Shown here piece by piece: positions 34,276 to 38,168 of a stretch of 64,000 bases of DNA. Where the stretch lies: NCBI RefSeq assembly GCF_988242995.1, contig NZ_OZ547043.1, one strand, 5' to 3'. Under the pieces are notes generated by a model. It ran no database searches, was not told the DNA's origin, and saw only the letters and a list, made by a program, of their open reading frames with translations. Positions within the stretch are counted from its first letter, which is position 1. The number at the start of each line of letters is the position of its first letter. A program made the translations under genes and the position numbers.

Positions 34276-34665
<390 letters not shown>

Positions 34666-34799
34666 TTCCTTATTGGGCGGTGAAACGTTACCGCCCAACG
34701 CTTTCTTCTCCCTTCGTAAAATCACCGCAATATCTATCTTCACCACGGCATATTCCTGCGTGTCGTCCTCATTTTTGCGAGGCGTTTTCCAGAAATGAA

Positions 34800-34832
34800 T
34801 GTAATGCATATGTAATGCTATAATGCATTACA
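34800..34832. promoter_or_regulatory. Candidate promoter/operator of the relBE-like TA cassette
   Basis: Two copies of TGTAATGC plus a TATAATGC copy, with the 10-bp perfect palindrome TAATGCATTA overlapping a TATAAT -10 hexamer about 30 bp upstream of the antitoxin start. Confidence 0.55.
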
Positions 34833-34856
34833 CTTTTCATAATTACCGGAGGCATA

Positions 34857-35099
34857 ATGGCCACACTTAACGTCCGCCTGGATGACAAACTGAAAAATGA
34901 GGCTTATGCGGTGCTGGAAAAATTAAATATCACGCCTACTGAAGCAGTGCGACTGCTGTTTCAGTACGTTGCGGAAAATGGACGAATGCCGGTAAAAACG
35001 CTCACTGTCAGTGATAGTGAAGAAGCCTTGTTACGCACTGTCAGGGAACGACTGGCCAACCCACAAGAGGCCATTAAGGTCCGACTGGATGAACTATGA
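34857..35099 (+). CDS. RelB/DinJ-family antitoxin (ribbon-helix-helix)
   Basis: 80-aa ORF MATLNVRLDDKLKNEAYAVLEKLNITPTEAVRLLFQYVAENGRMP... closely resembling E. coli RelB; GGAGG ribosome-binding site. Confidence 0.88.
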   Translation: MATLNVRLDDKLKNEAYAVLEKLNITPTEAVRLLFQYVAENGRMPVKTLTVSDSEEALLRTVRERLANPQEAIKVRLDEL

Positions 35100-35379
35100 G
35101 CTGGCGTTTGATCCGCGGGCGCTGAAAGAGTGGCAAAAACTGGGCGTGACAGTCCGGGAACAATTTAAAAAAAAGCTTGAGGATGTGCTGAAAAGGCCGC
35201 GCAATCCATCGGCTAAACTGCGGGATTTACCGGACTGCTACAAAATTAAGCTGCGCACACAGGGATATCGCCTGGTTTATCAGGTTAACGATAAAGAGTT
35301 GCTCGTGTTGGTGATAGCTATTGGTAAGAGAGAGAACTCAGCCGTTTATGAAGACGCGACTAAACGGCTGGATGAGTGA
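35089..35379 (+). CDS. RelE/StbE-family mRNA interferase toxin
   Basis: 96-aa product MNYELAFDPRALKEWQKLGVTVREQFKKKLEDVLKRPRNP...LPDCYKIKLRTQGYRLVYQV... closely resembling E. coli RelE; start overlaps the antitoxin stop by 11 nt. Confidence 0.88.
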   Translation: MNYELAFDPRALKEWQKLGVTVREQFKKKLEDVLKRPRNPSAKLRDLPDCYKIKLRTQGYRLVYQVNDKELLVLVIAIGKRENSAVYEDATKRLDE

Positions 35380-35844
35380 CTAACGCAAATGATGCACCAC
35401 CTGATTGCTGCTGCCGCGCCAGATCAGGGAAGGGTCTTTTAAATCCTGCACAAATTTGCCGTCGACCAGTACGTTAATCAAATCAACAACCTGCATTTGC
35501 GCAGCGTTGAGTTCGTCGAGTTTATAGCCTGTCCACACCCAGATGTCTTTACCCGGACATTCGGCGCGGATGCGTTGTACCAGTTTCAGAATATCCGGCA
35601 CGTTTTGCGGATGCAGCGGATCGCCGCCGGAGAGGGAAATCCCCTGGCGTTTGATGCGAGTGTCATTCAGATCGTTAATGATCTGGTCTTCCATTGCTTT
35701 GGTAAATGGCTGACCGGAATTTACCCGCCAGGTGCTTTTGTTATAGCAACCGGGGCATTCATGAACACACCCGGAGACAAACAGGGTGCAGCGAGTGCCG
35801 GGGCCGTTGACGATGTCGACAGGATAGTACTGATGAAAGTTCAT
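35380..35844 (-). CDS. nrdG: Anaerobic ribonucleoside-triphosphate reductase activating protein (radical SAM)
   Basis: 154-aa ORF MNFHQYYPVDIVNGPGTRCTLFVSGCVHECPGCYN... with a CxxxCxxC-type cluster motif. Confidence 0.95.
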   Translation of the reverse strand: MNFHQYYPVDIVNGPGTRCTLFVSGCVHECPGCYNKSTWRVNSGQPFTKAMEDQIINDLNDTRIKRQGISLSGGDPLHPQNVPDILKLVQRIRAECPGKDIWVWTGYKLDELNAAQMQVVDLINVLVDGKFVQDLKDPSLIWRGSSNQVVHHLR

Positions 35845-36029
35845 TTTCGCTTCTCAATTGACGCCATGACTGCTCTGGTGCGTACGGGCGAAGTCCCCCG
35901 ATGCTACGCATTTGCCTCCTTGCGACGACAAAAACTGACCAGAGGCAATTCATTATGTCGGGAATCAGGAAGGGGCACGGAACGGTCCCCTCTCCCTTGA
36001 GGGAGAGGGTTAGGGTGAGGGTGGAAGGA

Positions 36030-38168
36030 TTAACCGATCTGCCCATTTCCCAAATGTTTAACGCGGCGCTTAACTTCTTCCTGCTTACCAGCGTTAAACG
36101 GACGTGCATCCGGGCTACCTAAATATCCGCACACGCGGCGAGTCACCGACACACGGGAGGCGTCATGGTTACCACATTTCGGGCAAGTGAAGCCTTTGCT
36201 GGTGCACTCGAACTCGCCAGTAAAGCCACACTCGTAGCACTCATCGATCGGCGTATTGGTGCCGTAATACGGTACATGCTGATAGCTGTAATCCCAGACA
36301 TCTTCCAGCGCCTTCAGGTTGTGCTGAATGTTTGGATACTCGCCGTAGCAAATGAAACCACCGTTCGCCAGCGGCGGGTAAGGCGCTTCAAAGTCGATCT
36401 TGTCATACGGGTTCACCTTTTTCTCCACATCAAGGTGGAAACTGTTGGTGTAGTAACCTTTATCGGTCACGCCCGGCACCACGCCAAACTCAGCGGTATC
36501 GAGACGGCAGAAGCGGTCGCACAGGTTTTCACTTGGCGTGCTGTAGAGACTGAAACCGTAACCCGTTTCTTCTTTCCACTGATCCACCGCCTGACGCAGA
36601 CGTTCAACAATCGCGATACCTTTCGCGCGGAGCTGCTCGTTGTCGTAAACATGCTCGCCGCCGAACAGCGCGTTAATGGTTTCGTGGATGCCGATGTAAC
36701 CCAGCGAAATAGACGCACGACCGTTTTTGAAGATTTCAGAAACGTCGTCGTCAGCATTCAGACGCACGCCACAAGCGCCTTCCATATAGAGGATCGGGGC
36801 TACGCGCGCTTTCACGCCCTCGAGACGAGCGATACGGGTCATCAGCGCCTTACGTGCCAGCACCAGACGTTCATCCAGCAGCTTCCAGAAGGTGGCTTCA
36901 TCGCCTTTTGCCTCCAGAGCAATACGCGGCAGGTTCAGGCTGATCACGCCGAGGTTGTTACGACCATCGTGGATCTGCTCGCCGTTTTCATTTTCCCACA
37001 CGCCGAGGAAGCTGCGGCAGCCCATCGGGGTTTTAAACGAACCGGTGACTTTCACTACCTGATCGTAGTTCAGGATATCCGGATACATGCGCTTGCTTGC
37101 GCACTCCAGCGCCAGCTGTTTGATGTCGTAGTTCGGATCACCTTTTTTATGGTTCAGGCCATCGCGAATCGCAAACACCAGTTTCGGGAACACCGCAGTT
37201 TTACGGTTTTTACCGAGGCCGGCGATACGGTTACGCAGGATCGATTCCTGAATCAGGCGCGACTCCCAGCTGGTGCCCAGACCAAAACCAAAGGTTACAA
37301 ACGGCGTTTGACCGTTGGCGGTATGCAGGGTGTTTACTTCGTACTCCAGCGACTGGAAGGCATCGTAGCACTCTTTGATGGTACGAGAGTTAGCGTAGCC
37401 TTCGGCGTCCGGGATGTTCCACTCTTCTGCGGTCTTGCGATGTTTGTTGTAGCTGGCGGTGACAAACGGTGCCAGCACTTCATCGATACGGTTAATGGTG
37501 GTGCCGCCATAAATATGGCTGGCGACCTGAGCAATAATCTGCGCAGTTACAGCGGTTGCCGTAGAAATCGACTTCGGCGGTTCAATCTCGGCGTTCCCCA
37601 TTTTAAAGCCCTGGGTCAGCATGCCTTTCAGGTCGATCAACATGCAGTTGAACATCGGGAAGAACGGCGAGTAATCGAGATCGTGATAGTGAATATCACC
37701 ACGTTCATGTGCCTGCACCACGTCACGCGGCAGCAGGTGCTGGCGTGCATAGTGTTTAGCCACGATCCCGGCCAGCAGGTCGCGCTGGGTTGGAATCACC
37801 TTGCTGTCTTTGTTGGCGTTTTCGTTGAGTAACGAGGAGTTGGTCTGCTCGACCAGACCACGGATCTCCTGGTTCAGGCGACCGCGTTTTTCACGTTCAA
37901 TGTCGCGATCGTGACGGTACTCGATGTAAGCACGAGCCAGTTGTTTGTATGGACCCGACATCAGCTGGTTTTCAACTGCGGTCTGGATCTCATTGATATC
38001 CACCTGGTTGCGGCCCTGCATCTGCTCGCTGACAACCGCGGCAACAGTGGCGCAATAATCGGCATCATCGACTTCCGCTGCTTTAGCTGCACGCAGAATC
38101 GCTTCTTTGATGCGCTCTGATTTAAACGGCACTTTGCAGCCGTCTCGTTTCATCACATGCGGTGTCAT
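36030..38168 (-). CDS. nrdD: Anaerobic ribonucleoside-triphosphate reductase (class III)
   Basis: 712-aa ORF with ATP-cone N-terminus and C-terminal glycyl-radical motif; Zn-binding cysteines near the C-terminus. Confidence 0.96.
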   Translation of the reverse strand: MTPHVMKRDGCKVPFKSERIKEAILRAAKAAEVDDADYCATVAAVVSEQMQGRNQVDINEIQTAVENQLMSGPYKQLARAYIEYRHDRDIEREKRGRLNQEIRGLVEQTNSSLLNENANKDSKVIPTQRDLLAGIVAKHYARQHLLPRDVVQAHERGDIHYHDLDYSPFFPMFNCMLIDLKGMLTQGFKMGNAEIEPPKSISTATAVTAQIIAQVASHIYGGTTINRIDEVLAPFVTASYNKHRKTAEEWNIPDAEGYANSRTIKECYDAFQSLEYEVNTLHTANGQTPFVTFGFGLGTSWESRLIQESILRNRIAGLGKNRKTAVFPKLVFAIRDGLNHKKGDPNYDIKQLALECASKRMYPDILNYDQVVKVTGSFKTPMGCRSFLGVWENENGEQIHDGRNNLGVISLNLPRIALEAKGDEATFWKLLDERLVLARKALMTRIARLEGVKARVAPILYMEGACGVRLNADDDVSEIFKNGRASISLGYIGIHETINALFGGEHVYDNEQLRAKGIAIVERLRQAVDQWKEETGYGFSLYSTPSENLCDRFCRLDTAEFGVVPGVTDKGYYTNSFHLDVEKKVNPYDKIDFEAPYPPLANGGFICYGEYPNIQHNLKALEDVWDYSYQHVPYYGTNTPIDECYECGFTGEFECTSKGFTCPKCGNHDASRVSVTRRVCGYLGSPDARPFNAGKQEEVKRRVKHLGNGQIG

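Follow-up and report, generated by a model that had tools for sequence, protein, structure and literature searches.

A relB-type antitoxin gene and a relE-type toxin gene lie between cybC and nrdG in the window, that is, in the whole stretch of 64,000 nucleotides that we analyzed. Strong family and structure matches, the catalytic residues, the synteny, the operator, the selection acting on both genes, and the toxicity and rescue reported for the Salmonella orthologue lead us to read them as, very probably, a working type II RelBE operon. In this operon, RelE would cleave mRNA, RelB would neutralize the toxin and repress the operon, and the translation of both genes would be coupled; cleavage and binding are assigned here from the family. 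The cassette is real, functional-looking and ordinary. Since RefSeq annotates it and its Salmonella orthologue has been named and tested, the locus is already known.

Gene layout and protein families

We compiled the features of the locus from the open reading frame (ORF) list, the annotation and the sequence itself (Table 1). relB and relE are encoded on the same strand and share the 11 nt from 35089 to 35099. The stop codons of relE and of the convergent nrdG are contiguous, with 0 nt between them, and the terminator scan found no terminator-like site on either strand of this junction. The two-gene cassette of 80 and 96 aa, with its 11-nt overlap and a toxin stop abutting nrdG, had been described in a first-pass annotation and was confirmed from the sequence and the ORF list. 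No defense genes are present in the neighborhood according to the ORF list, and PADLOC gave no matches. Rfam returned nothing but a sub-threshold chance match in the nrdG-nrdD spacer, where a G-rich repeat-like element (GGTCCCCTCTCCCTTGAGGGAGAGGGTTAGGGTGAGGGTGGAAGG, 35975-36030) scored 17 bits against whalefall-1, compared to a gathering score of 37. This spacer measures 157 to 189 bp among the E. coli loci compared. On the other side of the cassette, cybC (34279-34665) is full length in the window and encodes a 128-aa protein carrying a signal peptide. The match to K-12 cybC, which is annotated as a shorter CDS, begins at query position 20. This shorter match fits a K-12 gene that we take to be defective.

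Table 1. Features of the cybC-relBE-nrdG locus (positions refer to the window)
Feature	Position	Strand	Basis and remarks
Terminator-like hairpin 3' of cybC	34673..34698	+	TTGGGCGGT-N8-ACCGCCCAA, then T-rich tail; terminator scan and inverted repeat
Presence/absence segment	34675..35382	.	Stands in place of 39 differing bp of the 44-bp K-12-type cybC-nrdG spacer
Putative RelB operator, 33 bp	34800..34832	+	TGTAATGCATATGTAATGCTATAATGCATTACA; three TGTAATGC half-sites, two direct and one inverted
Extended -10 element	34816..34824	+	TGCTATAAT; read from sequence; inside operator; good -35 box absent
relB Shine-Dalgarno	34848..34852	+	GGAGG; read from sequence; 4 nt 5' of ATG
relB-type antitoxin gene, 80 aa	34857..35099	+	ORF list; N-terminal half ribbon-helix-helix DNA-binding, C-terminal half toxin-binding tail
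Left 8-bp direct repeat	35085..35092	+	CTGGATGA; end of relB; left endpoint of recurrent relE deletion
relE-type toxin gene, 96 aa	35089..35379	+	ORF list; ATG 35089, TGA 35377-35379; putative ribosome-dependent mRNA endonuclease
(AG)4 tract	35327..35335	+	relE codons K80-R81-E82, including catalytic R81; 2-nt frameshift by slippage here in some strains
Right 8-bp direct repeat	35368..35375	+	CTGGATGA; end of relE; junctions of relB-only alleles
nrdG, convergent neighbor	35380..35844	-	ORF list and annotation; stop codon 35380-35382

The assignment of the 80-aa protein to the RelB family, proposed earlier, holds in the profile and sequence searches against NCBIfam, Pfam and the PDB. The protein scored 130 bits against the NCBIfam equivalog NF008412 (cut-off 96) and matched Pfam RelB over residues 1-76 (6.5e-16). 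Its best solved structure is K-12 RelB (PDB 4FXE chain A, 4fxe_A; 1.2e-20, residues 1-80), and an alignment with the MG1655 gene gave 38 identical residues out of 80 (48%). N5 and R7, which are predicted DNA-contacting residues of the β-strand, are common to both proteins. A RelB-type sequence, a ribbon-helix-helix N-terminus, a toxin-binding tail and the location directly upstream of a toxin gene place the protein in the RelB/DinJ family.

The 96-aa protein likewise remains in the RelE family, to which it had been assigned by eye. This was the outcome with TIGR02385, where the margin is slim (29.9 bits, cut-off 27.9), with Pfam PF05016 (7.6e-15), the top Pfam model, which is named ParE_toxin and is a broad model spanning the whole RelE/ParE superfamily, and with the structures of K-12 RelE. 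A phmmer search against the PDB returned K-12 RelE (4v7k) at 2.1e-35 over residues 1-94, and the best structures were all RelE. Aligned with the MG1655 gene product over the whole length, 61 of 96 residues (64%) are identical, and K52, K54, R56, R61, R81 and Y87 are all unchanged. We take K52, K54, R61, R81 and Y87 to be the catalytic and mRNA-binding set known from structural work on RelE and the ribosome. Full-length similarity to a characterized RelE and the presence of the catalytic residues thus define a member of this family, which by homology would be an mRNA endonuclease. The YoeB/Txe family was rejected for the toxin, as TIGR02116 gave only 18.3 bits (cut-off 51.8).

Promoter and putative operator

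Repeats and a palindrome over a TATAAT box had been claimed for the region upstream of relB, and all of them are present. TGTAATGC occurs as direct copies at 34800 and 34811, with an 11-bp spacing, and as an inverted copy at 34825-34832. The perfect palindrome TAATGCATTA (34821-34830) overlaps TATAAT (34819-34824). In the 64-kb window, the TGTAATGC octamer was observed 8 times compared to 2.4 expected, and no shuffle gave 8; three of these eight copies lie inside one 33-bp stretch. This excess and the clustering indicate that the operator repeats are more than chance. The sigma-70 consensus scan of the window reported no relBE promoter, because it demands at least four of six matches in the -35 hexamer. 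We set this output aside, since the extended -10 element, a textbook example, was read by eye and is backed by its conservation: its TG and TAnAnT positions are kept in all genera aligned.

The upstream alignment covered the 125 bp 5' of relB in ten sequences, which came from Escherichia, Citrobacter, Enterobacter and Kosakonia. Within the operator, 27 of 32 positions (34800-34831) are invariant, whereas the flanks vary and the upstream DNA is poorly conserved. The Shine-Dalgarno region (GGAGGCATAATGGC) is also kept, with a 1-base change in one metagenome-assembled genome (MAG); the Salmonella sequence is GGAGACATAATG. Of four Salmonella loci, two have exactly this 33-bp operator, and the other two each show a single-base difference. 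Because synonymous sites are saturated between genera (dS > 1), the near-invariance of the operator is strong evidence of selection. K-12 relO, as read from MG1655, is TTGTAATGACATTTGTAATTACAA. It is located just upstream of the start codon and contains TGTAAT/ATTACA hexads, as does the window operator. Autorepression by RelB at the putative operator (34800-34832) is a well-supported in silico prediction, and the initial suggestion that the repeats are consistent with autoregulation gains strength from the near-invariant operator across genera and from the hexads shared with K-12 relO.

Two further observations concern this region. A second conserved block (34769-34798), TTTTG[A/C]GAG..C..T[T/A]TCCA.AA, lies upstream of the operator and contains an imperfect inverted repeat (TCATTTTTG / CAGAAATGA) that is kept in Escherichia, Citrobacter, Enterobacter and Kosakonia. 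It is too distant upstream to be the -35 box of TATAAT, and could be an UP element or the site of another regulator. The relB-only strain E. coli MSB1_4I lacks the 11 bp equivalent to 34799-34809, which correspond to one unit of the direct ATGTAATGC(AT) repeat. Its operator thus has two half-sites instead of three.

We propose that transcription starts at the extended -10 promoter TGCTATAAT inside the 33-bp operator. relB would be translated first, and translation of relE would be coupled to it via the 11-nt overlap. By homology, RelE would cleave mRNA in the A site of the ribosome, as a ribosome-dependent endonuclease that uses K52, K54, R61, R81 and Y87. Likewise by homology, the C-terminal tail of RelB would wrap RelE and neutralize the toxin, while its N-terminal ribbon-helix-helix dimer would bind the TGTAAT hexads and repress the operon, probably with RelE as co-repressor, as at K-12 relO. 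By analogy, RelB would also be subject to proteolytic turnover.

Distribution, toxin loss and selection

The full cassette was found in 390 of 5426 complete RefSeq E. coli genomes (~8%). In another 64 the match stops at the end of relB, leaving relB alone, and the cybC-proximal part of the segment is present in 454. The site is empty in about 4970 genomes (~92%), where the match to the window ends at 34674 and begins again from the last nrdG codon onward. The presence of the cassette is therefore strain-variable, as had been suspected. The K-12 cybC-nrdG spacer, described in the first-pass annotation as short, measures 44 bp in BW25113 and BLR(DE3), and the alignment across E. coli revealed that the window interval is not identical to it. 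The nrdG stop is TGA in genomes with the empty site and TAG in those that have either the full cassette or just relB; since it differs by allele state, the polymorphic segment ends within the last nrdG codon and the stop. Neither an integrase nor a target duplication nor terminal repeats were found at the flanks of the segment. In E. coli, all close matches at the DNA level lie on the chromosome, at this single site. PGAP names the products 'RelB/DinJ family antitoxin' and 'RelE family toxin', and both are annotated in all full-length matches listed. We rejected the 39-bp filler of the empty allele as a remnant of relB, since its MAFFT alignment to the relB interior is a forced chance alignment.

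In all relB-only alleles, the sequence ...CG[A/G]CTGGATGAGTGA runs straight into the nrdG stop. They arose by the loss of 283 bp between the two 8-bp repeats, which leaves a RelB of 79 aa ending in ...RLDE; RelB and RelE both terminate in this way. These alleles are found on at least three haplotypes: WP8 differs by 7 substitutions from the window allele, Z0117 by 3 from a relE-frameshifted allele, and O145 and MSB1_4I by 25-33 from all others. The number of haplotypes and the occurrence of both junction variants (A or G) indicate that the deletion is recurrent. Judging from these alleles, at least three independent deletions via the 8-bp repeat have removed relE and left an orphan relB behind. 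In E69 and 2020CK-00188, which represent different haplotypes, one GA unit is missing in the (AG)4 tract, and PGAP marks relE of 2020CK-00188 as 'frameshifted'. The intact 40-mer at this tract had at least 307 exact genome matches and the frameshifted 38-mer had 1; these exact-match counts alone are usable, because BLAST aligned the two across the 2-nt gap. The frameshift is rare among complete genomes.

The repeated loss or inactivation of relE in E. coli and E. albertii indicates that the toxin is dispensable, and it may be mildly costly. Loss of the toxin first is the expectation from addiction logic, so that an orphan relB by itself demands no new function. The locus is a tidy natural example of module decay, in which the toxin goes first, by repeat deletion or slippage, and the antitoxin and operator stay.

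A scan of species-representative genomes together with a protein search revealed relB-relE with the 11-nt overlap and the convergent nrdG-nrdD in Citrobacter amalonaticus, three Enterobacter spp., three Kosakonia spp. and Salmonella enterica. The same order, relB-relE-nrdG-nrdD, is also found in an Enterobacter MAG and a soil MAG. The stop-to-stop gap between relE and nrdG ranges from 0 to about 12 nt across genera. In Enterobacter sp. Bisph1, relE lacks a normal stop and runs (110 aa) into the 3' end of nrdG, resulting in a tail-to-tail coding overlap. The upstream neighbor is cybC in Escherichia and sugar-utilization genes in Salmonella; since it varies by genus, the conserved linkage is with nrdG. 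At the equivalent site, the type strain of E. albertii has a ruined relBE: relB lacks its promoter and the first ~58 codons, and an A-run in relE contains a frameshift. Most simply read, these loci suggest that the cassette is an old resident beside nrdG in the Enterobacteriaceae that was lost from most E. coli lineages. This would refine the earlier view, in that the cassette is most simply taken as ancestral and lost rather than newly inserted.

Compared to the E. coli proteins, the syntenic orthologues are 80-91% identical in RelB and 61-74% in RelE. The stronger conservation of RelB is the reverse of the pattern seen against K-12. Between genera, relB has a mean dN of 0.098, compared to 0.198 for relE. 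This difference originates from the DNA-binding half of RelB (dN 0.01-0.09), whereas its toxin-binding tail (0.11-0.23) changes at about the pace of RelE. The pattern fits a frozen repressor-operator pair combined with a toxin-antitoxin interface that would be co-evolving. For pairs with estimable dS, relB has a dN/dS of about 0.03-0.08 and relE one of about 0.09-0.25. Within E. coli, relE has a pN/pS of about 0.17 and relB has zero amino-acid changes. Taken together, relBE is clearly under purifying selection within E. coli and between genera.

Alternative readings and comparison with known systems

Given the decay described above, the cassette could be a remnant in which the genes look intact here while the toxin-antitoxin action is gone. 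The deletion of relE from 64 genomes, which represent at least three haplotypes, the relE frameshifts in E69 and 2020CK-00188, the ruined state of both genes in the E. albertii type strain and the roughly 92% of E. coli genomes without the locus would all agree with this. But both frames are intact in the window, at least 307 genomes have an intact 40-mer at the slippage tract, and the catalytic residues, the purifying selection and the invariant operator point to a retained function, as does the Salmonella orthologue, which is toxic and neutralized by its antitoxin. We consider a remnant very unlikely. A recent insertion via a plasmid, prophage or other mobile element appears highly improbable for other reasons: the position next to nrdG is kept in five genera with differing upstream genes, a decayed copy sits at the equivalent site in E. 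albertii, the close E. coli matches are all chromosomal and at one site, and the flanks lack an integrase, target duplication and terminal repeats. These findings outweigh the patchy distribution in E. coli, the slightly lower GC content of the cassette (0.47 compared to 0.51 in the flanks) and the location of K-12 relBE in the Qin prophage. RelE homologues are indeed common on enterobacterial plasmids, with 3937 records matching RelE in the plasmid collection, but no genuine plasmid copy there exceeds 67% protein identity. One E. coli record of this collection, NZ_CP134663.1, has a 100% identical cassette; at 4.9 Mb, this record is the size of a chromosome, which suggests misfiling as a plasmid.

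The best Pfam matches of the toxin, ParE_toxin (PF05016) and ParE-like_toxin (PF15781), would be in line with a ParE-type gyrase poison instead of an mRNA endonuclease. However, PF05016 covers the whole RelE/ParE superfamily, the toxin is 64% identical to K-12 RelE over its full length with the catalytic residues kept, and its best structure matches are all RelE. Moreover, its partner is a RelB equivalog that reaches 30 bits with the RelB_ParD model, below the cut-off of 60. A gyrase poison is therefore barely conceivable. The main role of the module could also be phage defense by abortive infection or plasmid anti-addiction rather than stress tolerance, with the molecular mechanism unchanged. 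Several haplotypes have kept an orphan relB after losing relE, and E. coli plasmids often carry a RelE of ~67% identity that such an antitoxin might neutralize. But PADLOC found no match, neighboring defense genes are absent, and toxin-first loss is the expected route of decay, so that the retention of relB needs no special role. We regard such a main role as unlikely.

A RelBE operon remains our preferred reading, and we think it unlikely that the nrdG-linked relBE is more than a selfish module, be it by antisense cross-modulation with nrdDG or by a selected role of RelB itself. The tail-to-tail junction with nrdDG in five genera, with a gap of 0 to about 12 nt and no terminator in the E. coli scan, would require overlapping antisense 3' ends. 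If so, relBE expression could change when nrdDG is induced anaerobically, or the influence could run the other way. The intact orphan relB after at least three relE deletions, together with the near-frozen DNA-binding half and operator, makes a selected role of RelB conceivable, in which case it might neutralize RelE of plasmids or prophages or cross-regulate Qin relBE via the TGTAAT hexads. The practical value of the locus is small: a second, strain-variable chromosomal relBE copy in E. coli is confirmed, whose Salmonella orthologue has been used in work on persisters. It could also be of use in marking lineages and in probing cross-talk between paralogous RelBE modules.

In Salmonella, STM4449-4450 (SL1344_4379-4380) have been named relBE (PMC4669091) or relBE2ST (PMC4366850), and nrdD is STM4452 (PMC3405474). 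The cloning primers of PMC4669091 encode MTYELEFDP and MATLNV, with which the Salmonella proteins at the nrdG-linked relBE locus begin. These primers sit at the expected positions in the Salmonella loci compared, with 2-5 mismatches, because these loci are probably not from serovar Typhimurium. From the identity of STM4452 as nrdD, the locus tables and the primers, we identify the nrdG-linked Salmonella locus as STM4449-4450. Arabinose-induced expression of relE stopped the growth of Salmonella, co-expression of relB relieved the arrest, and induction of relE led to a dose-dependent rise in ciprofloxacin tolerance (PMC4669091). Toxicity and rescue are thus known from the Salmonella orthologue only and would extend to the E. 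coli pair by analogy. RelE2ST was among the toxins functional in the assays of PMC4366850; according to a retracted paper, STM4450 slowed the growth of E. coli slightly only. A 'minigene' ATGCA[T/C]TGA has been reported for STM4449. It was not found in four Salmonella loci, which are probably not serovar Typhimurium, a result that is uninformative either way. Papers on the E. coli copy of the nrdG-linked relBE did not turn up in our literature search, and full-text searches returned nothing for relBE with nrdG or STM4451 with nrdG.

The Salmonella locus agrees with the window in position and orientation (relB-relE, then convergent nrdG-nrdD), in the 11-nt overlap, in an almost identical N-terminal half of RelB (dN 0.009 in the DNA-binding half) and, in two of four loci, in all 33 bp of the operator. 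Its RelE is 72-74% identical to that of the window and comprises 94 instead of 96 aa, the stops of relE and nrdG are separated by 9 nt instead of 0, and extra genes lie between cybC and relB. Furthermore, relBE is reported in every S. enterica strain tabulated (PMC4669091), compared to ~8% of E. coli genomes. The RelE/StbE-type modules of enterobacterial plasmids encode RelE-family toxins of up to 67% identity, some with RelB/DinJ and some with Phd/YefM antitoxins, and none is close to the window at the DNA level. The resemblance of both proteins to RelB and RelE of the Qin prophage, and their status as paralogues, were borne out by protein identities of 48% and 64%, respectively, while the DNA is too diverged for blastn. 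The K-12 pair (b1564/b1563; PDB 4FXE, 4V7J) shares family, gene order and catalytic residues with the window pair, and K-12 relO has the TGTAAT/ATTACA hexads and the overlap with the promoter. The K-12 proteins are 79 and 95 aa long instead of 80 and 96 aa, the hexads are spaced by 12 bp instead of 11 bp, and the genes overlap by 1 nt instead of 11 nt. Finally, K-12 relBE is located in the Qin prophage with hokD downstream, whereas relBE of the window resides in the core chromosome beside nrdG.
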